Source of the DNA: Candidatus Baldrarchaeum yapensis
GTDB taxonomy: Archaea; Asgardarchaeota; Baldrarchaeia; Baldrarchaeales; Baldrarchaeaceae
Assembly (NCBI GenBank): GCA_016840465.1
Contig: JAEOSH010000025.1
Location: forward strand, 1 to 26,928
DNA length: 26,928 nt
Reading direction: 5' to 3'
Below are positions 1 to 26,398 of the stretch, piece by piece. A program made the translations under genes and the position numbers. The notes below the pieces were generated by a model. It was not told where the DNA came from. It saw only the letters and a list, made by a program, of their open reading frames with translations, and ran no database searches. Positions within the stretch are counted from its first letter, which is position 1. The number at the start of each line of letters is the position of its first letter.

Positions 1-107
1 GGACATAAGAGCACTCGTGGTGGGCGTTGGATCGCCAATCGCCATCTATTACATATCTGTACATTGCGGCGACGACCTCATCGCCCACCACGAGTGCTCT
101 TATGTCC
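1..107. repeat. perfect 26-bp inverted repeat (1-26 / 82-107), probably an end-of-contig fold-back artefact
   Basis: GGACATAAGAGCACTCGTGGTGGGCG at 1-26 is the exact reverse complement of 82-107. Confidence 0.8.
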
Positions 108-634
108 CTATTTGTCTTGATGTATTCTTGGAGGTAGAAGATTTTGTGGAGGGGGCCGCCGAGGGTTTCTCTCGATTCTAGGATTGATTTGAGGGAAAAT
201 GTGTCAGTTGCGAGGGCGACGAGTCTTCCCCAGCTTCCGACGAGGGGTTTTATTACCACGGGGAATCCCATTTTTTCGGCGGATGACAGGGCGCCTTCTA
301 TACCAAATGAAATGGAGGTGCGAGGGATGGGTATGTTATGTTGTTTTAACACTAGGTATGTGAGGAGTTTGTCTCCACAGATTTTAGTTGTGATATAGGG
401 GTTTATGACGGTGAATCCTTCGGATTCGAGGATGGCGGAGACGTATAGACCCTTGAAGTATGATATGCATCTTTGGAGGAAGACATCTGCATGGGGAAAG
501 GAGGACGGATCATGTAGGTCGAAGTTTAGGTTTCTGCAGTCGATGATGTCCACTTTCACGTTTCTCTTTGAGAGTTCCTTCATTATTTCCTTTTCTTCGA
601 ACCCTATCCTATTATGTAGCAACCCCACGATCAT
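1..634 (-). CDS. argX: LysX/ArgX-family ATP-grasp ligase, 3'-partial (runs off the window start); probably ArgX (glutamate--LysW ligase)
   Basis: Hand translation from ATG at 634 (ATGA overlap with the argH stop) is open to position 1: MIVGLLHNRIGFEEKEIMKELSKRNV...FLQRCISYFKGL...CGDKLLT...KPLVGSWGRLV...QEYIKTNRDIRALVVGDEVVAAMYRY...DWRSNAH. It is colinear with LysX at 9133-9990. The ORF track omits it, presumably because there is no stop in the window. The ArgX assignment comes from its position in the argG-argH operon. The first ~19 nt are probably a fold-back artefact. Confidence 0.85.
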   Translation of the reverse strand, partial: MIVGLLHNRIGFEEKEIMKELSKRNVKVDIIDCRNLNFDLHDPSSFPHADVFLQRCISYFKGLYVSAILESEGFTVINPYITTKICGDKLLTYLVLKQHNIPIPRTSISFGIEGALSSAEKMGFPVVIKPLVGSWGRLVALATDTFSLKSILESRETLGGPLHKIFYLQEYIKTNRDIRALVVGDEVVAAMYRYVIDGDWRSNAHHECSYV

Positions 635-2157
635 TTATTCCACCGCCAGGTTTTTTCGCTTGAAATTATGGAGTTTACGAGGGTTGAGACTTTCTCGAGG
701 GTTTTGTTTAATTTTTCGCGGAATTCTGAGATTTTGTTTTTGAGAGCGGTGAGGGCTTTTCTTCTGTCGGATAGCATTCTTAGGATTTCGTCCGATGATG
801 TTCCCCCGATGTGACATCTCCTTTGGATCGATGTTTGGGGGTCGAGGGCGTTTTTTATTTCCTCATCTGATATATTTGGGGGATTTGTGAAGCGTGTACA
901 TATTTCTGCAACCATTTTTGCAGAGAGTTGGGAGGGTTTGGTTCCGGTTTCCGCGATGCGTTTTGCAAGGGCAGCCACGATGTTGTATGCGGTTCTAAAT
1001 GGTATCTTTTTCTCGAGGGAGAGGAAGATTGCGAGATCTGGAAGGGTGCAAGGGGTGTCTTGGCATGTTTTTTCGAGAACGTCTTTGTTCAGCTTTATTG
1101 ACGAGAGAACTTTTGCCAGAATCTTGAGTATTTCGGAAGTGGTTTCCATTGCGGAAATTATACTGAACTTTGTTTCTTGCATGTCTCGCATATATCCGGA
1201 GGGCAGGCCCTTGAGCACGAGGAGGGTGTGAAGGAGGAGGGCGGGAATTCTCATGCTTCGGGCTCTTATCAGTTCTAGGGAGTCAGGGTTTCGTTTCTGG
1301 GGGAGTGCGCTGCTTCCAGTGCAGTACGCGTCTCCAAGTTTTACGAAATTGAACTCTCGGGTTGTCCAGAGGATCAGGTCTTCGGCGATGCGCGCAATAT
1401 GGAGTGCGAGGATATTCAGTTGCGCCAGTGTTTCGAGTTCCATTTCTCCTCGTGAGGATATAGCATCTAGGGCGTTTTCCTGGATTCCCTCGAATCCCAA
1501 CATTTTTGCCGTGAATTCTCTGTCTATTGGGAGCGGGACTCCCGCGACCGCCCCGGCTCCCAGTGGGCATACATTTACCCTTTTAAGGGTTTCCAGAAGC
1601 CTGTTTGCGTCTCTCAGCAACGCATCGACGTTGGCGAGGCACCAATATGAGAATGGCATGAGTTGAGCGTGTTGGAGGTGCGTGTAAGCGGGCATTATGA
1701 CATCTGCATTTTCATCTGCCAGTTTGAGGAGTTCTGATATTACGTTACATAGTTCTTCTAAAATTCCGAGGATTTTTTCGCGCATGTACATTCTGATGTC
1801 TGTGAGTACCTGATCGTTTCGGGATCTTCCGATATGTAGCATTTTTCCCGCGTCACTGGCTTTTTCCGTAACGAAGTTCTCTATGTTCATGTGCACGTCT
1901 TCGAGTTGGAGGTCGAGTTTGAATTTCCCCTCGGAGTGGAGTTTCTTGGCATCTTCTAGGGCCATTAGTATCTTCTTGAGGGATTCGAAGTCGAGTACGC
2001 CTATTTTGTACAGCATGAGGGCGTGTACTTCGTTTTGGATAATATCGTAGATTATGAGGTTTTCATCGAGCGATAAATCCTCTTGGGAGGCGAATTTTAA
2101 AAATTCGGGGTCGATACTTCCGGGTATTCTTTCCCTCCACATTGCTTTCTTCATCAA
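631..2157 (-). CDS. argH: argininosuccinate lyase
   Basis: 508 aa; EDVHMNIE, GRSRNDQV, YTHLQHAQ, GSSALPQKRNPD (fumarase/ASL signature); ATGA-coupled to argG. Confidence 0.95.
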   Translation of the reverse strand: MMKKAMWRERIPGSIDPEFLKFASQEDLSLDENLIIYDIIQNEVHALMLYKIGVLDFESLKKILMALEDAKKLHSEGKFKLDLQLEDVHMNIENFVTEKASDAGKMLHIGRSRNDQVLTDIRMYMREKILGILEELCNVISELLKLADENADVIMPAYTHLQHAQLMPFSYWCLANVDALLRDANRLLETLKRVNVCPLGAGAVAGVPLPIDREFTAKMLGFEGIQENALDAISSRGEMELETLAQLNILALHIARIAEDLILWTTREFNFVKLGDAYCTGSSALPQKRNPDSLELIRARSMRIPALLLHTLLVLKGLPSGYMRDMQETKFSIISAMETTSEILKILAKVLSSIKLNKDVLEKTCQDTPCTLPDLAIFLSLEKKIPFRTAYNIVAALAKRIAETGTKPSQLSAKMVAEICTRFTNPPNISDEEIKNALDPQTSIQRRCHIGGTSSDEILRMLSDRRKALTALKNKISEFREKLNKTLEKVSTLVNSIISSEKTWRWNK

Positions 2158-3404
2158 ATGTCCTCCCTGAGGCCTTGTGCCTTCAGGACCCTGTGCGCCA
2201 GCACTGAGGGTAGTCCCCAGAGTTCTACGAATCCCCTTGCGAGTTTTTGGTCGAATGTTGATATCTTTTCGTAGGTTGCGAGATGGTAGTCGTACAGCGA
2301 GTATTCGGATTTTCTTCCGACGACCTGGACGCTTCCCTTGTAGAGTTTTACTCTGACCACGCCGTTGACCTTCTCGTTAACTTTATCTATGAAGGCCTCA
2401 AGGTCCTCCCTGAGTGGATCGACCCAGAGTCCCGCGTACGCGAGGTAGGTCCATTCCTTATCGACGATGGACTTGAAGAGTATCTCGTGTCTGGTACATA
2501 CCATTTTTTCGAGGTCCTTGTGAGCGGTTATAAGTATCATTGCGGCCGGGCACTCGTAGACTTCCCTGCTCTTTATTCCGACTATTCTATCCTCGATATG
2601 GTCAAGCCTTCCTACACCATGCACTCCGCCGATTTTGTTTAATGTTTCCACGATCTTTACGGTATCCATATAATCTCCATTTATTGCAACGGGAACTCCC
2701 GATCGGAACTCTATTTCCAGGTATTCTGGCCTGTCGGGCGCCTTTTCTGGCGGGCAGGTCCATGCGAACGCATCCTCGGGGGGTTCGCAGAAGGGGTCCT
2801 CCAGCGGGCCGCATTCTATGGATCTTCCCCAGAGGTTCTCATCGATGCTGTACGGTGAGTCTATATCGACAGGTAGCGGTATTCCGTGCTTCTTTGCGTA
2901 CTCTATTTCCTCGTCCCTCGAGAGGTTCCACTCGAGCACCGGTTGGATGATCTTTATGTCCGGTGCGAGTGCCTTTATCGTCACGTTAAACCTTATTTGA
3001 TCATTTCCCTTTCCCGTGCAACCGTGAGCAATTGCGTCTGCTTTCTCCTTTCTTGCTATCTTTACGGCCCACTTTGCGAGGAGGGGTCTGGCAATGGAGC
3101 TGCTCACGGGGTAGACGTCCTCGTACAGGGCGTTGGCTTTAAGGGCGCGCATTGCGTACTCGTCGATGAACTCCTTTCTTGCATCTATGGTGTAATGTTT
3201 TTTGGCTCCGAGGTCGTATGCCTTCTTTTCTATCTCTTGGAAGTCTTTTGTCATTTGCCCAACGTTTAGGGTTAACGAGATCACGTCACAGTCGTACTTT
3301 TCCTGTATCCACTTTAGCATGCAGCTTGTGTCAAGGCCGCCGGAGTAGAGGAGGACGCACTTCTCGATGTGATCCGCATCCTTGGATTGCCCAGCAATTG
3401 TCAA
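2154..3404 (-). CDS. argG: argininosuccinate synthase
   Basis: 416 aa; LYSGGLDTS PP-loop, HGCTGKGNDQIRF, YSIDENLWGRSIECG, GIKSREVYECP; TTG start with GGTGA SD. Confidence 0.97.
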   Translation of the reverse strand: MTIAGQSKDADHIEKCVLLYSGGLDTSCMLKWIQEKYDCDVISLTLNVGQMTKDFQEIEKKAYDLGAKKHYTIDARKEFIDEYAMRALKANALYEDVYPVSSSIARPLLAKWAVKIARKEKADAIAHGCTGKGNDQIRFNVTIKALAPDIKIIQPVLEWNLSRDEEIEYAKKHGIPLPVDIDSPYSIDENLWGRSIECGPLEDPFCEPPEDAFAWTCPPEKAPDRPEYLEIEFRSGVPVAINGDYMDTVKIVETLNKIGGVHGVGRLDHIEDRIVGIKSREVYECPAAMILITAHKDLEKMVCTRHEILFKSIVDKEWTYLAYAGLWVDPLREDLEAFIDKVNEKVNGVVRVKLYKGSVQVVGRKSEYSLYDYHLATYEKISTFDQKLARGFVELWGLPSVLAHRVLKAQGLREDI

Positions 3405-3644
3405 TTACATCACCATTCTGTGGGGTCTCCTAATGCCTCTCAGCGACGGGTGTTAAAATTTACGTAGCGGCCAAAACAAGAACCTGGGATCCCGTTATTG
3501 TCATAACTTAATCGTGATATTCCGTTGCGCTGGGAGGTTTCTGCTATATGTCGGGGTTTGCATGGAATACGTACCGGATCGATGTCACTTCCTCCACATA
3601 ACCTATAAAAGGACACAATCATATTTTCAAAATGTCACAACGAG

Positions 3645-3896
3645 GTGGTTGAAATTTCGGGCCCTACGGAAAAGGAACTTAATTACAGGTTCGAAGAACC
3701 TCCGGGCATTCCCAATTATGTTTACGTGTATGTTCCGGCGGATGTTCTTTCTAAGGACGAATTGACGAGTATCGCGGCAATCTGCAATGCAATCCTGATA
3801 GAAACGCGAGGAAACGATACAAGAGTATTACTTCGCAAAAACAAGGTGAATCTGTTCGTAAGATTATTAAAGTACGCCGTAAGCGGGAAACCCTGA
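3645..3896 (+). CDS. small hypothetical protein (83 aa)
   Basis: Protein-like alternating beta/alpha pattern (YVYVYVP...DELTSIAAICNAILIE...RVLL...LFVRLLK). TATAAAA at ~3604-3610. It fills the gap between divergent argG and the convergent ACT gene. No family recognised. Confidence 0.55.
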   Translation: MVEISGPTEKELNYRFEEPPGIPNYVYVYVPADVLSKDELTSIAAICNAILIETRGNDTRVLLRKNKVNLFVRLLKYAVSGKP

Positions 3897-3916
3897 CTTC
3901 GTGGTATGTTATTTTC

Positions 3917-4615
3917 CTACTTATGTCTTTTTCTCATTAACATTATCTGATTTTCGAGTATTGAGTATGCCTTGAGCGCCATTTTCCTGTCGATTATTAT
4001 TATCGTGTCGGTGTAGCAACTCATAATTTGAGTTATGTTCACGCCGTTCTGGGCAAGTATGCTGGTGATGTAGGCTATTACCCCGGGTGTGTTTATTATC
4101 TCCTTGGGGCTAACAAGTACGAGGGCGGATTGATTTCTTATAGTCATGATGATGTTCTCCTTCCCCACCACATCAATTAACTTGTTGAGGAGGTGCTCGT
4201 CTATCACTATTGTGAAAGTGTCGGTTCCCTGCGTTATTTGGAAGAAGCGGGCGGTGCTCAATTCGTTTGCGATCTTGCCGAAACGGTTGATGAGAACATA
4301 GGGCCTGACTGTTACAACTGCAACATCATTCTTCAGTTCCAGAACCGTCTTGGCGATGATGCTAGAAATCTCCTCCTCCAGCGTCTCCTGGTGCTTAGAT
4401 AATTCGTCGGAGTACCTCAGTAATGCCATTTTTATCGCTTCGGATTTTACTTCCCTACCTATTATCTCCTCTACCTCTTTCTTGATGAGATTCGCTAATG
4501 CCGCGTAATTTAACACTTTCAACTTCAGAGCGTCCAATAATGACGGGTGGCGATTTATTACCTGTCTCGATGCCTCAGCTATTGATTTTGTCATTATATC
4601 ACACGCACCCCTCAT
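3917..4615 (-). CDS. archaeal ACT-domain protein (helical N-terminal domain plus tandem ACT/CASTOR-like domains); putative amino-acid sensor or regulator
   Basis: N-terminal SIAEASRQVINRHPSLLDAL...LNYAALA; C-terminal ACT TPGVIAYITSILAQNGVNITQIMSCYTDTIIII. Confidence 0.8.
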   Translation of the reverse strand: MRGACDIMTKSIAEASRQVINRHPSLLDALKLKVLNYAALANLIKKEVEEIIGREVKSEAIKMALLRYSDELSKHQETLEEEISSIIAKTVLELKNDVAVVTVRPYVLINRFGKIANELSTARFFQITQGTDTFTIVIDEHLLNKLIDVVGKENIIMTIRNQSALVLVSPKEIINTPGVIAYITSILAQNGVNITQIMSCYTDTIIIIDRKMALKAYSILENQIMLMRKRHK

Positions 4616-4810
4616 GCTTGATATTTGTAAAGATTATATGTGCATATTGGTACAGCATATGCTTTCTCTAATACTAGTTATAACGAACCATGCCTGTACA
4701 TGTGACAAATATAACATAACCTTTAAGTCACCATCCGCTTGTCCTCACATCTCAAATGTACCACTATAAAACTTAACGGTATACATACCTGGGAATATAT
4801 GGTACGAAAC

Positions 4811-4818
4811 CTTTAATA
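4811..4818 (+). promoter_or_regulatory. putative TATA box for the lysine operon
   Basis: CTTTAATA ~35-40 nt upstream of the hcs ATG; GGTGA SD at ~4843. Confidence 0.4.
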
Positions 4819-4851
4819 ATTTGGTTCGATGTTGCTGATAAAGGTGATGGT

Positions 4852-6069
4852 ATGAGTACGAAAAGCAAGTATAATGATCGAATATTCGTAAGCCCCTACT
4901 GCTATCACGAGGACGTTGTAAAGACCTACAGGGCCAATGGAGAGCCCGGCATAAACGACGCAACATTAAGAGAGGGAGAGCAGACGCCGGGTGTTGTTTT
5001 CAAACCCGAGGAAAAGGTAAAGATTGCGAGCATGCTCGACTCCATAGGAATAGATTACATAGAAGCGGGGTTCCCTGCGTCTTCCACGGCGGACAAGGAG
5101 GCTGTGAAAAGGATTGTAAGGCTTGGACTTAACGCGAAGATTTGCGGATTTTCGAGGGCCGTGAAATCCGATATCGATGCGGTGATAGATTGCGACTGCG
5201 ACTGTATTGTCCTTTCATTTCCGCCCTCAGACATCCACATAAGGTACAAACTCAGGATGACTCGTGAGGAGTACCTCAGGAGGGCAGTTGAGGCGGTAGA
5301 GTACGCGAAATCTCATGGTCTGTTCATAATTTATAGCGCGGAGGACTCGACGAGGGCAGAATTGTCGTGGTTGAAGCATGTATTTAATGAGATAGTTGCG
5401 GCGGGTGTTGACAGAGTGCGTATAGTCGACACGCTGGGTTGCATAACGCCGACCGCAATGAGGTTTCTCGTGGAACAGATAAGGGCATCGGTTCCCGCGC
5501 CGGTGGAGGTGCACTGCCACAACGACCATGGGCTTGCACTTGCAAACACGTTGATGGCATATGAGGCTGGTGCGACAGTTTTCAGTACAAGTGTCCTTGG
5601 TTTAGGTGAGAGAGCCGGTATTGCGCCGACTGAGGAGGTGATTCTGGCGCTCCATAATCTCTATGGAGTGGACAAATACATCACCGAGAACCTTGCGTCT
5701 CTCTGTGAGGAGGTTGCAAGGGCGGCAAAGCTACATATATGGCCGCTGAAGCCTGTGATCGGAGATAACGTCTTCACCCACGTTAGCGGCATCCATCAAG
5801 ACGGCGTGCTCAAGAATCCGATAGTTTACGAGTCATTCCCGCCGGAGATGGTCGGGCGCAGGCGCAAGTTCCTGTTAAGTAAGGTCAGCGGCCGGGCCGC
5901 TGTCAGGGCAAAGCTTAAGGAGTATGGGATTGAACTTTCCGACGAGGAGGTTAACGAATTAACGAATTTCATGAAGGATCTGTCCGTGAATAGAAAAAGT
6001 GCGTTCACTGATGAGGAATTCCTCGAGATCGTCCGCCAGTTCCTCTCAAGCAGGGGCAGGCATCTTTAA
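4852..6069 (+). CDS. hcs: homocitrate synthase (DRE-TIM metallolyase)
   Basis: 405 aa; DATLREGEQTPG, HCHNDHG, GLGERAG, HVSGIHQDG; lacks the C-terminal LeuA regulatory domain; first gene of the LysW operon. Confidence 0.85.
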   Translation: MSTKSKYNDRIFVSPYCYHEDVVKTYRANGEPGINDATLREGEQTPGVVFKPEEKVKIASMLDSIGIDYIEAGFPASSTADKEAVKRIVRLGLNAKICGFSRAVKSDIDAVIDCDCDCIVLSFPPSDIHIRYKLRMTREEYLRRAVEAVEYAKSHGLFIIYSAEDSTRAELSWLKHVFNEIVAAGVDRVRIVDTLGCITPTAMRFLVEQIRASVPAPVEVHCHNDHGLALANTLMAYEAGATVFSTSVLGLGERAGIAPTEEVILALHNLYGVDKYITENLASLCEEVARAAKLHIWPLKPVIGDNVFTHVSGIHQDGVLKNPIVYESFPPEMVGRRRKFLLSKVSGRAAVRAKLKEYGIELSDEEVNELTNFMKDLSVNRKSAFTDEEFLEIVRQFLSSRGRHL

Positions 6070-6099
6070 CTTTTTATTTAACTGGAGGACAGAACCCAT

Positions 6100-7353
6100 A
6101 TGGGCATGACAATTGCAGAAAAGATTCTTTCTAAAAAGGTCGGCAGAAAAGTGGAAGCTGGCGACCTGATAGTATGTGATGTGGACTTAGTAATGGCTCA
6201 CGATGGAACCGCGCCACTTGCAATAGAACAATTGAAGTCTCTCGGAGTTGATGACGTTTTCGATCCTTCGAAGATCGTTCTCGTGATCGACCACACTGCC
6301 CCCAGCCCGAGCAGCAATATCAGCAACATTCACAAGATGATGAGAGAGTTTGCGAGAAGGACCTCGTGTCATTTCAGGGATATTGGTTATGGTATATGTC
6401 ATCAAATATTGATAGAGGAGTTTGTAAAGCCGTGGACCGTTGTGGCAGGAGCGGATAGCCATACGTGTACGCACGGTGGACTTGGAGCATTTGCTGCAGG
6501 TTTTGGTAGCACGGACATTACTGTCATGATGGCCTACGGAAAAACATGGCTGAGAGTGCCCGAGTCGATAAAAGTTGAAGTTTCCGGCGAACTTGAGTGG
6601 CCAGTGACCGCAAAGGACGTGATATTACATGTAATTGGCGAGTTGGGGTCTGATGGCGCAACCTATATGGCCATGGAGTTCACTGGCGAGTGCATTAGAA
6701 AAATGAGCGTGGATGCACGATTTACGTTGACAAACATGGCAGTTGAGGCTGGTGCAAAGACGGGGTTGTGTCCGGTCGATGAAAAAACCTTGGAGTTCTT
6801 AAAACGGAGAGATGGAGTTACATATGAGAGGTTAGAGCCTGATAAGGATGCAGAATATGCGGATGAACTTCTGGTAGACGCAGGGAAATTGGAACCTCTT
6901 GTTGCGGTGCCCGATCGTGTTGACAACGTGAAATCGGTGAGTGAGGTCGAGGGCTTAGAGGTAGACCAGGTATTCATCGGAACGTGTACGAACGGTAGGT
7001 ATGAGGACTTGCTCATGGCGGCAAAGATTCTCAAGGGAAGAAAGGTGCACGAAGGGGTGAGATTGATAATACAACCGGCGTCACGAAGAGTTTACTTGGA
7101 GGCTTTGAATTCGGGACTCATAGAGATATTTCTCAAAGCGGGTGCGGTAATTAACCCGCCCGGGTGCGGCCCCTGTGTCGGTAGACATTTAGGTATACTA
7201 GGAGATGGGGAGCGGTGCCTTAGTACTCAGAATAGGAATTTCAAGGGAAGGATGGGCAATCCGAATTCGGAGATTTACTTGGCATCTCCGGTTGTCGCGG
7301 CTGCCACCGCGATCAAGGGTGAAATTACTGACCCTAGGAATTTGGGGGAATGA
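6100..7353 (+). CDS. hacA: homoaconitase (LeuC-family) large subunit
   Basis: [47 protein letters not shown]; lysine operon context. Confidence 0.9.
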
Positions 7354-7356
7354 TAT

Positions 7357-7872
7357 ATGAGGATAAAGGGAAGAGCCTGGAAGTTTGGTGATGATATTAA
7401 TACGGATCTGATAATCGCGGGGAAATACAAGTACGACACGCTTGATATGAAAGAACTTGCTAAACACGCATTTGAAGCGATAAGACCCGGATTTTCTGAT
7501 GCGGTTAAACCGGGCGATATAATTGTTGCGGGGAAAAACTTCGGTAGTGGGTCTAGCAGAGAGCAGGCCCCACTTGTAATAAAAGCATTAGGAATCGGAG
7601 CGGTGGTTGCAAAAAGCTTTGCTAGGATTTTCTACAGGAATGCGATTAATATCGGGCTTCCGGTGATCACGTGCGAGAAGGCATATGACGCGGTAACAGA
7701 GGGCGATGAGTTGGAAATAGATGTCGAGAAAGGTATCATAAAGAATCTGACGAGCGGTCAGACTCTAGGTTTTCGTCCTCTACCGGAGTTCATGATAAGG
7801 ATCCTGAAGGAGGGCGGAATAGTAAATTATCTGAAGAAGTATGGAGGATTCGAGATTGCCGCGGAGCGTTAA
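7357..7872 (+). CDS. hacB: homoaconitase (LeuD-family) small subunit
   Basis: [39 protein letters not shown]. Confidence 0.9.
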
Positions 7873-8881
7873 GGTTGCCGTGATACCGGGTGATGGCATC
7901 GGACCCGAGATAATGAGTGCCACCGTGAAAGTATTGGACTTCTTAAAATTGCCATTCGAGTTCGTGCGTGTCAATGTGGGGCGTAAGGCCTGGGAGAAGA
8001 GAGGGGCTGCAATCACCGATGAAGACTTAGACGTCATAAAAAGTTGCGATGTTGTATTGAAGGGACCTGTGGAAACACCCGTCGGCCGGGGAACATATCG
8101 GAGTGTTACTGTTACCATAAGGAAGGAGTTGGGACTCTATGCAAATGTTAGGCCCTTCAGAAGCATAGAGGGGCTTGCACTGATACCGAACGTGGACATA
8201 GTGCTCATAAGGGAGAACACCGAGGGACTGTACAGCGGGATAGAGTTCAGGATTGGAGAAGATACCGCATTGGGAATAAGGGTAATTACGAGACAGGCAT
8301 GCGAGCGGATTTTGAGGTTCGCATTTGAGTATGCACGGAGAAATGGAAGGAAGAAGGTTACAGCGGTTCACAAGGCAAATATCCTCAAGGAGACATGCGG
8401 CCTGTTCTTGGAGGTTGCCAAGGAGGTCTCGACGGAATATAGTGATATAGCGTATGATCATGCTCACGTGGATGCCGTTGCTTATGATTTGTTAAAAAGG
8501 CCGGAGCGTTTTGATGTTATAGTAACGACGAACCTCTTCGGAGACATTCTCAGCGATGAACTAGCAGGGATTACCGGCAGTATAGGTGTGGCAGCATCTG
8601 CGAACGTTGGGGATAAGTACGCAATGTTTGAAGCCATACATGGAACCGCACCGGATATTGCAGGAAAAGGCATTGCAAATCCGGCGGGTCTGATGCTAGC
8701 GGCGTCAATGATGTTAAATCATGTTGGATTTTCGAGGGAGGCCGATCTGTTGAGATCTGCTGTCATGAGAGCCCTGACGATGAAGAAAGTATGCACCCCC
8801 GACGTTGGTGGTAGGGGCAATACAGATACTTTCACTTCTGCGGTTTTGGATGAACTATCCAAGATGATGTCCGTCGTTTGA
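7841..8881 (+). CDS. hicd: homoisocitrate dehydrogenase (beta-decarboxylating dehydrogenase family)
   Basis: IPGDGIGPEI, LYANVRP, IRENTEGLY, VHKANIL, NLFGDILSD, EAIHGTAPDIAGKGIANP; the true start may be a few codons later. Confidence 0.85.
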   Translation: MEDSRLPRSVKVAVIPGDGIGPEIMSATVKVLDFLKLPFEFVRVNVGRKAWEKRGAAITDEDLDVIKSCDVVLKGPVETPVGRGTYRSVTVTIRKELGLYANVRPFRSIEGLALIPNVDIVLIRENTEGLYSGIEFRIGEDTALGIRVITRQACERILRFAFEYARRNGRKKVTAVHKANILKETCGLFLEVAKEVSTEYSDIAYDHAHVDAVAYDLLKRPERFDVIVTTNLFGDILSDELAGITGSIGVAASANVGDKYAMFEAIHGTAPDIAGKGIANPAGLMLAASMMLNHVGFSREADLLRSAVMRALTMKKVCTPDVGGRGNTDTFTSAVLDELSKMMSVV

Positions 8882-8913
8882 TGTATTTATTTCGAATTCC
8901 GTACATTGTTAAG

Positions 8914-8920
8914 TTTAAAA
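8914..8920 (+). promoter_or_regulatory. putative internal TATA box upstream of lysW
   Basis: TTTAAAA in an AT-rich 72-nt gap; GGAGGTG SD at 8941-8947. Confidence 0.4.
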
Positions 8921-8953
8921 GTACGAATTAAGAACATAATGGAGGTGGTGCGG

Positions 8954-9133
8954 ATGGGTAGGCAGGTTTCCTGCCCTGAATGTTACGCCCAGATAGAGGT
9001 TGCAGACGACGTTATCGTGGGTGAAATTATAGAGTGTCCGGATTGTGGAGTGGAGTTGGAAGTAGTAGAGGTGAACGACGAGGGTGTGAAGGTAAGAGTC
9101 GCTGAAGTCGAGGAGGAAGACTGGGGAGAGTAA
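8954..9133 (+). CDS. lysW: amino-group carrier protein LysW (59 aa)
   Basis: CPEC...CPDCG zinc ribbon, acidic, C-terminal EDWGE. Start reassigned from 8906 to ATG 8954, following the GGAGGTG SD. Confidence 0.97.
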   Translation: MGRQVSCPECYAQIEVADDVIVGEIIECPDCGVELEVVEVNDEGVKVRVAEVEEEDWGE

Positions 9134-19447: not shown

Positions 19448-19733
19448 CAGTACCCCTCAGGGAATTTGTGCCATAAGGTCAAGAAGATCCAGGAGGAGTC
19501 GATCTTTCAAAGCTTTCCATAAGGGTCAAGATAATAATTCATGACGTTAGACGAATTCTTGACCATTTGGTACGTCTAGGACGTTAAGTATATATTTTTG
19601 TATTTGATTTCTGCGCATTGTGTATACGGTGCTCGAAAAAGTTTCAGGGAGGCAAGATATATTTCGAGACACCCGTGTAACGATGATGTTTACGGAAGAT
19701 ACATTAATCATGCATGATATAATACCTTTGGAA

Positions 19734-19741
19734 TTTATAAA
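19734..19741 (+). promoter_or_regulatory. TATA box for the mutase operon
   Basis: TTTATAAA ~40 nt upstream of the likely ATG (19782); GAGGTG SD at 19770-19775. Confidence 0.55.
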
Positions 19742-19772: not shown

Positions 19773-21461
19773 GTGCCTGGCATGTTCAGACGAGAAACGT
19801 TGGAAGAAATCGAAAACAGGTTAAAGGAATGGGAGAAGCTTGTACAGGAGGAAACAAAGATAATTCCCGAGAGAGAAAAGGAGTTTCGCACGCTTTCGGG
19901 AATTCCCGTGAAAAGAGTGTACACACCACTTGATATTAAGGATAAGGATTACATGCGAGACTTAGGACTACCGGGCGAGTATCCATTCACTCGTGGTATC
20001 CACACCACGATGTATAGGGCAAGATTTTGGACAATGAGGCAGTTTTCCGGGTATGGAGGGCCTGAGGAGACGAATAGAAGACTAAAGTACCTATTAAAGC
20101 ATGGCGAGACCGGTCTCAGTTTGGCGTTTGACTTCCCGACAATAATGGGACTTGACTCGGATCATCCGCTCGCACATGGCGAGGTTGGCGTTTGTGGGGT
20201 TGCAGTGGATACTCTGAAGGACATGGAGATAATATTCGATGGCATTCCGATGGATAAGGTTACCACCAACATGACGATAAACCACCCGGCGACCGTCCTT
20301 CTGGCGATGTACATAGCCGCTGCGGAAAAGCAGGGAGTTCCACCAACTAAGATAGGCGGGACAACTCAGAACGACCCGCTAAAGGAGTTCATCGCCCAGA
20401 AATCCTACGTATTCCCTCCAGAGCCTGCAGTGAAACTGGCGATAGACATCATAGAGTACTGTACGAAACACGTACCAAAATGGAATCCCATCAGCATAAG
20501 CGGTTATCACATTAGAGAAGCTGGCGCCACCGCTGTGCAGGAGCTTGCGTTCACGTTGGCGGACGGGATAACATATGTTAAGCAGGCAATAGAGAGAGGG
20601 ATGGATGTAGATCAATTTGCACCGAGGCTTTCATTCTTCTTTGCTGCTCACATCGACTTCTTCGAGGAGATTGCAAAGTTCAGGGCTGCACGGAGAATGT
20701 GGGCGAAAATAATGAAGGAGTGGTTTGGGGCTAAGAAACCAAGGTCGATGTGGATGAGGTTCCATGTACAGACATCGGGTGTGTCATTAACTGCTCAGCA
20801 ACCCGAGAACAACATTGTAAGAGTGGCAATAGAGGCCCTTGCCGCCGTGCTGGGAGGCTGCCAAAGCCTTCACACGAATAGCATGGACGAGGCATGGGCC
20901 CTTCCATCCGAAAAGGCTGTCAAGATTGCCTTAAGAACCCAGCAGGTAATTGCATATGAGACCGGGGTTGCAAACACCGTTGATCCGCTGGCCGGTTCAT
21001 ATTACGTTGAATGGTTAACGGACAAGATAGAGGAGGAGGCATGGAAGTACATAGATAGGATAGAGAGCATGGGAGGTATGATAGAGGCGATAAAGAAGGG
21101 CTTCCCGCAAAGAGAGATAGCGGATAGCGCGTATAGGTTCCAGAAAGAAGTTGAAGAGGGCAAGAGGATAATTGTCGGAGTAAATGCATTCGTGGATGAG
21201 GACGAGAAGCTCGAAATTCCGCTCCTAAGGGTGGATCCTGAGATCGAAAAGAGGCAAATTGAGAGGCTTAAGAGGATAAAGAAGGAGAGAGACAACTCAA
21301 AGGTGCAACAACGCCTCGCAGAATTGCGAAGAGCAGCGGAGAGAGGGGAAAACGTGATGCCATACATTCTGAATGCCGTAAAGGTGTACGCAACACTCGG
21401 AGAGATAATGGACACTCTTAAGGAGGTGTACGGAGAGTACAAGGAGCCAATACTCTTCTAA
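19773..21461 (+). CDS. icmA: B12-dependent acyl-CoA mutase large subunit, isobutyryl-CoA mutase type (likely start ATG 19782)
   Basis: [65 protein letters not shown]. Phe and Gln occupy the MCM Tyr89/Arg207 specificity positions. Confidence 0.85.
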
Positions 21462-21485
21462 ACTTTCGTTCGAGTTATTTGCGCG

Positions 21486-21917
21486 GTGGTGATTCCAGTG
21501 GGGGAAGAAAAGAAAGAGGAAAGAAAAATAAGAGTGCTGATTGCAAAACCTGGGCTTAATGGGCATGATCGCGGAGCTAAGGTTGTCGCCAGGGGTCTAA
21601 GGGATGCGGGCATGGAGGTAATATATACTGGACTGAGACAGACCCCGGAACAAATTGTGGAAACGGCGATTCAAGAGGACGTTGACGTGGTTGGTTTGAG
21701 CATACTCAGTGGGGCCCATATGACGCTGCTTCCGAAAGTTGTTCAACTATTAAGAGAGCGGGGAGCAGATGATGTACTGGTGATTGCGGGTGGCATAATA
21801 CCCACAGAGGATATACCGAAGTTGAAAGAGGCGGGCATTGCAGAAGTGTTCTTGCCCGGCGCACCGATTAGCAAGATAGTGGAATTCATAAAGAAGAACG
21901 TAAGAAAACGGCGATAG
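21486..21917 (+). CDS. icmB: acyl-CoA mutase small, cobalamin-binding subunit
   Basis: [40 protein letters not shown]. Confidence 0.88.
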
Positions 21918-21928
21918 AGGTAGTCCTA

Positions 21929-22915
21929 TTGGCGGAAGGAGACATAGAGTTCGTGGAAAGAATTGCAGAGGGCGTCCTGAGGGGGGATGTTAGGAGCATA
22001 GCGAGAGCGATATCGATAGTTGAGAACGAGCCGCGCCTTGCTCCCCTTCTCATTTCCAAAATATTTCCGTACACCGGACGGGCGCACATTGTTGGAGTGA
22101 CGGGGCCGCCAGGTAGTGGGAAGAGTTCCCTAATAGCTAAATTGGCAAAGATATGGAGGAAGGACGGAAAAAAGATAGGAATAATTGCCGTTGACCCCAC
22201 CAGTCCCTTCACGGGTGGCGCCCTTCTCGGCGATAGAATAAGAATGCAGGAACTCACGGGCGACAAAGACGTTTATATAAGAAGTATGGCGTCGCGCGGG
22301 AGCCTCGATGGTCTCTCGAGGGCTACAAGGGATGCAATAAAGATACTTGATGCGGCCGGTAAAGACATAATAATCGTTGAGACAGTTGGCGCGGGACAGG
22401 CAGAGGTTGGAATAGTGAAAGTTGCACATACCGTTTTGGTTGTATTATGCCCCGGCCTTGGTGACGAGATACAATTTCTGAAAGCGGGTATTATGGAAAT
22501 AGGAGACATATTTGTCGTGAATAAGGCCGATATAGGTGATGCTGATAGAGTTGTCTTGGAAATAGAAAATATTCTGGAGATGGCATCTGAGTTCTTGCCG
22601 CAGAAGCCCGCGTGGGCTCCACTTGTCATAAAGACCTCAGTCATTACGAATGAGGGAATTGAAAAACTTGTGAGGAGTATAGAGGAGCACTATGCGTATA
22701 TCAGGGGAACATCAGAAGGCGAGTTTGTTAGGGACAAGATTATCGAGGAACTTGTGGACATCATCGGCGAGAATGTAAGGGAGTATGCGCGTCATTTAAT
22801 AACAAAGGATTCCATGTGCAACGAGATACTTGAGAGGGTTCTTAAGAAAGATATAGATCCGTACACCGCCGCAAGGAAAATACTTGCCGAGATGCTCAAG
22901 AGGCGGGAGTTTTGA
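21929..22915 (+). CDS. meaB: MeaB/MMAA G-protein chaperone of the B12 mutase
   Basis: TGPPGSGKSS, AVDPTSPFTGGALLGDRIRM, YIRSMASRG, ETVGAGQ, IQFLKAGIME, VNKAD. Confidence 0.95.
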   Translation: MAEGDIEFVERIAEGVLRGDVRSIARAISIVENEPRLAPLLISKIFPYTGRAHIVGVTGPPGSGKSSLIAKLAKIWRKDGKKIGIIAVDPTSPFTGGALLGDRIRMQELTGDKDVYIRSMASRGSLDGLSRATRDAIKILDAAGKDIIIVETVGAGQAEVGIVKVAHTVLVVLCPGLGDEIQFLKAGIMEIGDIFVVNKADIGDADRVVLEIENILEMASEFLPQKPAWAPLVIKTSVITNEGIEKLVRSIEEHYAYIRGTSEGEFVRDKIIEELVDIIGENVREYARHLITKDSMCNEILERVLKKDIDPYTAARKILAEMLKRREF

Positions 22916-23457
22916 TGTCGCATGATAGGCCGCGTCTAAAGCAGGGACTAATACAGGTTTATACGGGCGATGGTAAGGGTAAAACTACTGCGGCACTCGG
23001 TCTGGCAATGAGAGCAGTGGGACACGGGCTTAAAGTTATAATGGTGCAGTTCATGAAGGGAAGGTTCAACTATGGAGAGTTAAAGGTAGCAAAATACCTT
23101 CCGAATTTCGAAATAGTGTCTTTTGGGACACCGGACTTTGTTGATCCATCGAACATCAGAGATGTCGATCGAGAAGAAGCTAGGAAGGCCATGGACTTCG
23201 CCAAGAGGGTTATAGAGAGCGGGGATTACGATGTTGTCATATTGGATGAGATAAACGTGGCGATGGATTTCGGCCTTGTAGATGTGAATGAAGTGATAAA
23301 TATGCTTAAGAACAAACCCCGTCACGTCGAGGTTGTACTTACTGGTAGGTACGCGCCAAGAGAAATACTTGAAATGGCGGACCTCGTGACGATAATGAGG
23401 AACGTAAAACATCCGTATGAGCGGGGTATTATTGCAAGGAGAGGAATAGATTTCTAA
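22912..23457 (+). CDS. cobA: ATP:cob(I)alamin adenosyltransferase, CobA/CobO/BtuR type
   Basis: YTGDGKGKTTAALG, VQFMKG, VILDEI, EVVLTGR, ADLVT..KHPY..RRGIDF. Confidence 0.95.
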   Translation: MMSHDRPRLKQGLIQVYTGDGKGKTTAALGLAMRAVGHGLKVIMVQFMKGRFNYGELKVAKYLPNFEIVSFGTPDFVDPSNIRDVDREEARKAMDFAKRVIESGDYDVVILDEINVAMDFGLVDVNEVINMLKNKPRHVEVVLTGRYAPREILEMADLVTIMRNVKHPYERGIIARRGIDF

Positions 23458-25132: not shown

Positions 25133-26398
25133 TTATTTTCTCCCAAATCTCCCAAAGAAGCTATCTAGAGATACACCTGCCCTTCTCGGCGGTCCGTGGC
25201 TTAATAACCACTCTTTAACCTTTTCAGGCGTCCTCAATTTGTTCAGAACCGAAATTGCCTCGTTATATACCTCTATTAGTTTCTTGATTACATCCTCAGG
25301 ATAGTTTTGCTGAGGAATTATTGCATTCTTCGCGTAATTCAGCGCTCTGATCGCGTGATCCAGTGATATGTTCCCGAGGGCGAAGTGGCTAAGTATGTCC
25401 TCTATTTTATAAAAGGCCTCACGTGCAGACTTGCTGAACTTTCGACCGCCAGATACGGGAGGTGGTGAGGGATTAAACCTCAGATTATTTATGTCTATCT
25501 CGAAGAGTATGGCGTCTTTTATTATCTTAACCGCAGTTTTTTCATCGATGGCATTTTTCTTTTCCTCTCTTTTCACGCTCTTCATGACGTAATTACCCAC
25601 CTTATGATACGCTTTTTCCGCCAGCTCGTCGGCTTCTCCTTCAATATATTTTCTCCAATTAGGATTATGCTTAAAGTTCTTCGGATCTACCCAAGAAATG
25701 TCGAATTCTTCTAGATTTTCGGGTTTTAAAGCGATACACGAGAAATTTAAATGTCTGTGAAGACTCAATGGTGCAGTGAATACCCGTTGCGGATCCATTA
25801 GATTTTCTACCTTTATAGGCGATATTATGCCATTTGTGCTATTTAGTCGCAAAATTCCCTTCGATACTTTCTGAATTATATATTCGACAATTGCGTATCC
25901 CACGTTAAGAGGTCCTATTCTCGAGTATAAGTCGTCAGAGATTGCGTTCTCATGTATTCTCACATGTATACCGTTTCCAGACCACACCAAGTACACAGAT
26001 TCCGTCACGCCTTCCTTTTCCAGCGCGTCGACTATCATCTGAGCTGCTTTTATGGTCACCTTCCACTGTTCCCATTTGCTATCGATGTCCCAAGTTGGAG
26101 TTCGCCTAATTACATTATTTTCATAGTCCAGAGCGTCGCTCTTTACAGTTAGCTTTCGATAAATACTTGCTGATGCGTAAAAAGTTCTAGGTCGGAGTGC
26201 GGAGAATCTTTTTAGCAGGATTCTTACATCTTCGGGATTTGATATAGTTATTGGTTTATTTCCAGTATATCTTAACAAAATGGGACGGTCATCTTTAGTT
26301 TTTGTTTCGCAATGGATAGCGACCCACCTTCTTTTGCAGAATCCCGAGATCTCGTGTAATACTATAGGATTTGAGTAGTATCTTGCTACGTCCATCAT
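25133..26398 (-). CDS. archaeo-eukaryotic primase (AEP) superfamily primase-polymerase-like protein with a helical C-terminal extension
   Basis: Motif I WDID, motif II WSGNGIH, motif III region MDPQRVFTAPLSLH; ~150 aa C-terminal extension ending SLDSFF. Confidence 0.78.
   Translation of the reverse strand: MMDVARYYSNPIVLHEISGFCKRRWVAIHCETKTKDDRPILLRYTGNKPITISNPEDVRILLKRFSALRPRTFYASASIYRKLTVKSDALDYENNVIRRTPTWDIDSKWEQWKVTIKAAQMIVDALEKEGVTESVYLVWSGNGIHVRIHENAISDDLYSRIGPLNVGYAIVEYIIQKVSKGILRLNSTNGIISPIKVENLMDPQRVFTAPLSLHRHLNFSCIALKPENLEEFDISWVDPKNFKHNPNWRKYIEGEADELAEKAYHKVGNYVMKSVKREEKKNAIDEKTAVKIIKDAILFEIDINNLRFNPSPPPVSGGRKFSKSAREAFYKIEDILSHFALGNISLDHAIRALNYAKNAIIPQQNYPEDVIKKLIEVYNEAISVLNKLRTPEKVKEWLLSHGPPRRAGVSLDSFFGRFGRK

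Follow-up and report, generated by a model that had tools for sequence, protein, structure and literature searches.

Positions 1 to 26,928 of contig JAEOSH010000025.1 of the Asgard archaeon Candidatus Baldrarchaeum yapensis (assembly GCA_016840465.1), a stretch of 26,928 nucleotides referred to here as the window, contain at 19773-23457 four co-directional genes encoding an acyl-CoA mutase large subunit, a B12-binding small subunit, a MeaB GTPase and a CobA-type adenosyltransferase. This gene order, proposed in an initial annotation made from the letters of the sequence, was borne out by Pfam and NCBIfam profile matches. The large subunit is named "methylmalonyl-CoA mutase family protein" or "methylmalonyl-CoA mutase (EC 5.4.99.2)" (MCM) in public databases, as the initial annotation had foreseen while itself proposing an enzyme of the isobutyryl-CoA mutase (ICM) type. 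The features of the operon are as follows.

19733..19740, + strand: TATA-box-like TTTATAAA, a putative promoter element read from the sequence, approximately 40 nucleotides upstream of ATG 19782.
19782..21461, + strand: acyl-CoA mutase large (substrate-binding) subunit of the Phe/Gln (ICM) type; PF01642 and TIGR00641; the open frame reaches up to GTG 19773.
20043..20045, + strand: Phe codon at the position of MCM Tyr89, from alignment with structure chains.
20397..20399, + strand: Gln codon at the position of MCM Arg207, from alignment with structure chains.
21486..21917, + strand: B12-binding small subunit; PF02310, 93.7 bits; TIGR00640, 190.9 bits; public calls start at 21489 or 21498.
21558..21560, + strand: Asn codon (AAT) where the DxHxxG cobalamin motif otherwise has a conserved Asp; three independent public assemblies agree on this Asn.
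21929..22915, + strand: MeaB G-protein chaperone; TIGR00750, 341 bits (cut-off 240.75); PF03308, 284.9 bits.
22915..23457, + strand: CobA/BtuR/CobO-type ATP:cob(I)alamin adenosyltransferase; TIGR00708, 197.3 bits (cut-off 167.75); PF02572, 228.3 bits; public call of 180 amino acids.

The substrate-binding and B12-binding subunits are encoded separately, by the PF01642 and PF02310 genes. Spacing within the operon is tight, with gaps of 24 and 11 nucleotides and one overlap of 1 nucleotide, the start of the adenosyltransferase gene overlapping the meaB stop codon. The large-subunit frame (19773-21461) encodes 562 amino acids from GTG 19773 or 559 from ATG 19782; the latter is most likely the true start since the public gene call is 559 amino acids and a GAGGTG sequence is located 7 nucleotides upstream. 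The large subunit matched PF01642 with 791.6 bits and TIGR00641 with 877.9 bits, above the cut-off, while the score with the MCM equivalog model NF006944 was 663.5, under its cut-off of 876. The P-loops are GPPGSGKS in MeaB and GDGKGKTT in the adenosyltransferase. Both of these proteins scored above curated cut-offs, in agreement with the suggestion in the initial annotation that the mutase is accompanied by its own chaperone and adenosyltransferase.

In MCM, Tyr89 and Arg207 are the pair that binds the carboxylate of the substrate. The large-subunit frame contains the sequences WTMRQFSG and KEFIAQK, with the Phe and Gln codons exactly where the initial annotation had placed them. Alignment with solved structures using HMMER paired this Phe with Tyr89 and this Gln with Arg207 of both P. 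shermanii MCM (1req) and human MCM (2xij), the equivalence on which the proposal of that annotation depends. The Y89F mutant of P. shermanii MCM (5req) reads the same residue, Phe, as the window protein. The equivalents of MCM Gln197, Tyr243 and His244 are kept as Q199, Y245 and H246, which are invariant in an alignment of 50 copies, and all conserved pocket residues in that alignment are retained by the large subunit. At the positions of Ile90 and Asp117 of hydroxyacyl-CoA mutase (HCM) the window protein has Phe and Ala. The residue rules applied here for ICM, PCM and HCM derive partly from general knowledge of the family and partly from PDB alignments. Phe and Gln were present together in all 120 of the best database homologues (69-78% identity), mostly from Thermoproteota metagenome-assembled genomes (MAGs). 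Phe/Gln proteins differ from each other at residue 141, a third position of the pocket, where Cys, Val, Thr, Glu or Leu occurs.

The distribution of the signature was evaluated in a sample of 251 Asgard genomes, 190 of which contain mutase homologues, usually in two or three copies with 60-80% identity. The 50-copy alignment revealed two paralogue types, one with Phe and Gln (residue 141 being Cys or Leu) and one with Tyr and Arg (residue 141 being Val), and zero mixed copies. The same held in a set of 136 archaeal and bacterial copies, in which Phe was paired solely with Gln and Tyr solely with Arg. Together with the 120 uniform homologues, this shows that the pair did not arise by chance. 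The Tyr/Arg copies share 60-66% identity with the window protein, so neither identity nor profile score can tell the types apart. By motif pattern, 162 of the 251 genomes carry the Phe type and 111 carry the Tyr type. Most Asgard genomes contain two paralogous split mutases, a Tyr/Arg operon copy and a separate Phe/Gln copy (e.g. loci L053 and L055-L061), whereas the source genome and families f20, f21 and f23 carry the Phe type only. An extra copy with the variant WTMRLFSGHG (Leu before Phe and His after Gly) was observed in Asgard family f9 at G179:C179:2588-2616, G146:C12:127537-127565, G103:C187:1811-1839 and G173:C75:3155-3183.

The two types also differ in their association with methylmalonyl-CoA epimerase. 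The Tyr/Arg operon has the order B12 subunit, MeaB, mutase and epimerase, with the epimerase gene directly adjoining that of the mutase. An epimerase gene was located within 2.5 kb of 21 of the 34 Tyr/Arg copies versus none of the 99 Phe/Gln copies in the set of 136. Epimerase matches above the curated cut-off of TIGR03081 were obtained for 89 of the 251 Asgard genomes. Each of these genomes comes from a family in which a Tyr/Arg-type mutase, or another copy that is not Phe/Gln, is present as well, and no match above the cut-off was found in the Phe/Gln-only families f20, f21 and f23. Family f14, in which all 10 genomes encode the epimerase, has mutase copies that were missed by both motif patterns. 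The Tyr-type lineages f8, f9 and f18 gave epimerase-like matches only below the threshold, so the link is strong without being absolute.

The source genome (2.27 Mb in 100 contigs, 96% complete) encodes a single PF01642 mutase. The lack of an epimerase gene that the initial annotation had reported for the window was found again here and extends to the whole genome, in which TIGR03081 gave no match even at an E value of 0.001. A search of the same genome for the carboxyltransferase of propionyl-CoA carboxylase or methylmalonyl-CoA decarboxylase (PF01039) was also negative. Since neither enzyme was found, the organism has no obvious means of forming or consuming methylmalonyl-CoA. The alignment, the covariation, the restriction of epimerase adjacency to Tyr/Arg paralogues, the genome absences and the placement in the trees described below support the initial proposal of an enzyme of the ICM type, not an MCM, that would need no epimerase, and make it the best-supported reading.

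The genome contains nine acyl-CoA dehydrogenase matches, one of them adjoining the sole electron-transfer flavoprotein (ETF), together with eight crotonase, nine thiolase and one ETF matches. Fusions of 3-hydroxyacyl-CoA dehydrogenase with enoyl-CoA hydratase are present as two proteins (667 and 694 amino acids), and an acetyl-CoA C-acetyltransferase (acetoacetyl-CoA thiolase) scored above its cut-off. There are six alpha subunits of 2-oxoacid:ferredoxin oxidoreductases of the POR/VOR/IOR family and ten matches to the domain of ADP-forming acyl-CoA synthetases. Genes for beta-oxidation and for 2-oxoacid oxidoreductases, for which the initial annotation had advised a search, are among these. 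Its side suggestion of alkane metabolism is unsupported: no MCR/ACR alpha subunit was found in the genome, a search that did not extend to glycyl-radical alkylsuccinate synthase. An alkane role is disfavored because a succinate-type alkane intermediate would require the carboxylate-binding Arg.

Two other small B12-binding genes of the genome belong to corrinoid methyltransferase systems and not to mutases. The possibility that the one on contig C75 marks a hidden second mutase was considered and rejected, the gene being paired with a URO-D/MtaA-like methyltransferase. The two loci encoding a corrinoid protein and a URO-D/MtaA-like methyltransferase are located at G000:C62:2528-6960 (L161) and G000:C75:12189-13778 (L160). 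Since these two loci are present and CobS was not found in the genome search, the results suggest that the organism, while employing several corrinoid enzymes, obtains the cofactor by salvage.

Phylogenetic analyses were conducted with FastTree on 150 representatives of clusters at 50% identity plus named references, and with IQ-TREE on 38 taxa (LG+G4, 1000 ultrafast bootstraps (UFBoot)); neither tree included Streptomyces IcmA, Slip_0759 of S. lipocalidus, ECM, PCM or RCM. In the FastTree analysis the close Phe/Gln sequences, including the window protein, form one clade. Attached next to it are the HCM-context gene of Mycobacterium sp. ELW1 (Ile/Asp/Gln) and a haloarchaeal Phe/Gln gene, and the whole assemblage is sister to the split-type Tyr/Arg clade (supports 0.92-0.98). 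The haloarchaeal gene (L075), a lone Phe/Gln large subunit on the Halocatena salina plasmid NZ_CP096020.1, groups with the ELW1 gene outside the main Phe/Gln clade. In the IQ-TREE analysis the window protein joins sequences from Thermoproteota, Bathyarchaeia, Thermoplasmatota and a few Asgard archaea with 100% support, and this subclade is sister, also with 100% support, to a bacterial group from Aquificales, deltaproteobacteria and Bacillota that includes Clostridium luticellarii and Desulfosporosinus orientis. The window mutase is 73% identical to Thermoproteota proteins of named loci, and up to 78% identical to those among the database matches, versus 62-72% for most Asgard genes. This closeness and the fully supported grouping, together with the position of the bulk of Asgard Phe/Gln genes elsewhere in the clade, suggest that the copy came to this lineage laterally, by exchange among archaea of hydrothermal habitats. 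The 164 family members kept for the tree show more than 50 different combinations of residues at the Tyr89/Arg207 positions, so many substrate specificities of the family probably still have to be assigned.

The characterized two-subunit ICM is IcmA/IcmB (EC 5.4.99.13) of Streptomyces cinnamonensis, which has Phe80 and Gln198 at the Tyr89 and Arg207 positions and serves the supply of polyketide precursors. The window operon resembles it, by its features as generally known, in the split subunits and the Phe/Gln signature; we know of no MeaB or adenosyltransferase gene in the Streptomyces operon. IcmF (4xc6) shares with the window operon the Phe/Gln pocket and the dependence on a MeaB-type G protein, but is a single polypeptide of B12 domain, MeaB and substrate domain where the window has three separate genes. 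With the IcmF model NF045497 (cut-off 1500) the window scored 382 bits, and 4xc6 was matched with only 304 bits. The split MCM of archaea and clostridia has the same division into subunits, the MeaB partner and the fold family, at 60-66% identity, but is distinguished by Tyr/Arg, Val at residue 141 and an adjacent epimerase, where the window has Phe/Gln, Cys and no epimerase. The 2-hydroxyisobutyryl-CoA mutase HcmA/HcmB (4r3u) is the best solved-structure match and is similar in its split architecture, its Gln at the Arg207 position and its position as a sister lineage in the trees, but it has Ile and Asp where the window protein has Phe and Ala.

The same four genes occur in the ICM cluster Slip_0757-0760 of Syntrophothermus lipocalidus TGB-C1, which isomerizes isobutyrate to butyrate as reported by Narihiro et al. 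(PMC5017805). For BL-3 and C. luticellarii, both of which produce isobutyrate, Liu et al. (PMC7764203) described a homologue of ICM that had been misannotated as MCM. The large subunit of C. luticellarii has the Phe/Gln signature, is 59.8% identical to the window protein and falls in the sister group of the window subclade. These S. lipocalidus and C. luticellarii enzymes are bacterial and were assigned from genomes and physiology, not from purified protein; the window operon differs in its archaeal (Asgard) host and in a small subunit with Asn in DxHxxG. ICM was "only known from bacteria" in a 2010 review (PMC2847961), and no paper on ICM in archaea or Asgard was found in the part of the literature that could be searched.

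Taken with the observed gene content, signature residues, covariation, genome context and phylogeny, these comparisons lead us to propose, with a probability of roughly 0.7, that the operon encodes a two-subunit adenosylcobalamin (AdoCbl)-dependent ICM of the IcmA/IcmB type (EC 5.4.99.13) together with MeaB and an adenosyltransferase. The broader assignment, to a mutase of the ICM/HCM lineage acting on acyl-CoA without a carboxylate, is predicted with considerable confidence. With Phe and Gln in place of the carboxylate-binding Tyr and Arg, the pocket would suit an uncharged C4 acyl group, and the enzyme would interconvert isobutyryl-CoA and n-butyryl-CoA. The MeaB GTPase would load and guard the cofactor, and the CobA-type adenosyltransferase would convert scavenged corrinoid to AdoCbl. 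As to direction and pathway, we infer a likely catabolic role in which valine, via 2-oxoacid:ferredoxin oxidoreductase, or isobutyrate would supply isobutyryl-CoA and the mutase would convert this branched substrate to straight-chain butyryl-CoA. Acyl-CoA dehydrogenase with ETF, the fused hydroxyacyl-CoA dehydrogenase/hydratase and thiolase would then yield two acetyl-CoA, from which the ADP-forming acyl-CoA synthetases would make ATP. On paper, all steps that lead from valine to two acetyl-CoA and ATP, by way of isobutyryl-CoA, butyryl-CoA and crotonyl-CoA, are covered, the mutase step itself being predicted.

Several observations weigh against assignment as ICM. The small subunit has the motif NGHDRG where about 90 related small subunits have DGHDRG; the His and Gly of the DxHxxG base-off/His-on motif are present and the Asp is replaced. 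This Asp normally hydrogen-bonds the His that coordinates cobalt, and its replacement by Asn may weaken catalysis. No catabolic partner gene was found around the operon among the window genes, the flanks encoding amino-acid biosynthesis and housekeeping functions, and the six oxidoreductase alpha subunits are assigned at the level of the POR/VOR/IOR family, so that a valine-specific one among them is putative. Support for the whole Phe/Gln(+HCM) clade is moderate (UFBoot 71-75, SH-like 0.92). The closest grouping is with Phe/Gln genes of bacteria that isomerize butyrate and isobutyrate, in trees without the characterized stand-alone IcmA, and the activity of the archaeal subclade is a prediction from sequence.

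The replacement in the B12 subunit also raises the question of whether the enzyme is crippled or has an altered mode of cofactor use. Asn is rare, occurring in 2 of about 92 neighboring small subunits, yet real given its presence in three independent assemblies, and mutation of the DxHxxG Asp is known to lower turnover in related B12 enzymes. Either is nevertheless quite unlikely, with four intact and tightly packed genes, every conserved pocket residue kept in the large subunit, and no other mutase in the genome; moreover, the second Asn case, in an unrelated Nitrososphaerales MAG, arose independently. Somewhat easier to entertain, although still unlikely, is a mutase for another uncharged acyl-CoA (e.g. 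isovaleryl/pivalyl-CoA or a branched C5 acyl-CoA) with butyryl/isobutyryl-CoA conversion as at most a side activity. IcmF, which has the same Phe/Gln pair, has minor activity with isovaleryl- and pivalyl-CoA, and a residue smaller than Phe at the Tyr89 position is needed for better activity with pivalyl-CoA, a requirement that argues against this substrate for the window enzyme. The minor activity of IcmF, restated in PMC10481361, the variability of residue 141 and the many specificities implied by the more than 50 residue pairs favor such a substrate, while the close bacterial sister group from organisms known for isomerization of butyrate and isobutyrate (PMC7764203, PMC5017805) points back to the C4 pair.

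A hydroxyacyl-CoA mutase (HCM/RCM-like) converting 2-hydroxyisobutyryl-CoA and 3-hydroxybutyryl-CoA is very unlikely. The match to HCM 4r3u (610 bits) and the placement of the ELW1 gene as sister to the Phe/Gln clade are what speak for it, but Phe and Ala occupy the Ile90 and Asp117 positions and no 2-hydroxyisobutyrate-CoA ligase is present beside the operon. The top structural match was rejected as a sign of HCM function: the window protein ranks HCM above MCM above IcmF, and since an archaeal Tyr/Arg copy gives the same ranking with HCM best, the order says nothing on the substrate. Least credible is a true MCM that tolerates Phe and Gln. The 60-66% identity to archaeal Tyr/Arg copies and the names in public databases agree with it, but the carboxylate-binding pair is missing, the epimerase and carboxyltransferase were not found in the genome, and in most Asgard genomes the Phe/Gln copy coexists with a Tyr/Arg paralogue that has the adjacent epimerase, a coexistence that argues for different jobs of the two types.

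The mutase operon is neighbored by arginine/lysine biosynthesis genes and by genes for histidyl-tRNA synthetase, a SIS protein and GMP synthase. Window positions 2-13070 are taken up by a large region for lysine/arginine biosynthesis of the LysW type, which encodes two LysX-like ATP-grasp proteins, argininosuccinate lyase and synthase, a homocitrate-synthase-like protein, large and small subunits of the aconitase family, an isocitrate/isopropylmalate-type dehydrogenase, a semialdehyde dehydrogenase, an amino-acid kinase and a class-III aminotransferase. An NAD kinase with a fused C-terminal MarR-type winged-helix domain is encoded at 15664-16707, and a 421-amino-acid open reading frame at 25133-26398 (- strand) is without a Pfam match at an E value of 1e-5. 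No RNA family match to Rfam was obtained in the window.

The operon is a new example of a known enzyme type and a correction of annotation, not a new mechanism or system, and the Phe/Gln variant is common and was already noted in bacteria. What is new here is the finding of the Phe/Gln type in 162 of the 251 Asgard genomes sampled, along with the small-subunit Asn that replaces the DxHxxG Asp. Automatic pipelines and KEGG-style reconstructions call such genes MCM and thereby credit organisms with a propionate/methylmalonyl pathway that they lack. A rule of two residues is easy to apply and could serve for re-annotation of thousands of genes, because the covariation is perfect in the sample and tracks epimerase adjacency. 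Given the variation at residue 141 and the Asn in the cobalamin motif, the archaeal subclade might have its own range of substrates. With the Phe/Gln type in about two thirds of the sampled Asgard genomes, commoner than the true MCM type, it is conceivable, if still speculative, that this mutase is a core and so far unremarked part of Asgard carbon metabolism that links valine and isobutyrate to the butyrate branch considered ancestral in these archaea; in that case, the methylmalonyl/propionate capacity deduced from Asgard genomes would in part be misannotation. As an ICM, the enzyme would provide the organism with a route from valine or environmental isobutyrate into beta-oxidation of butyrate that should yield two acetyl-CoA rather than excreted isobutyrate, which would bear on models of carbon flow and energy in Asgard and other sediment archaea.

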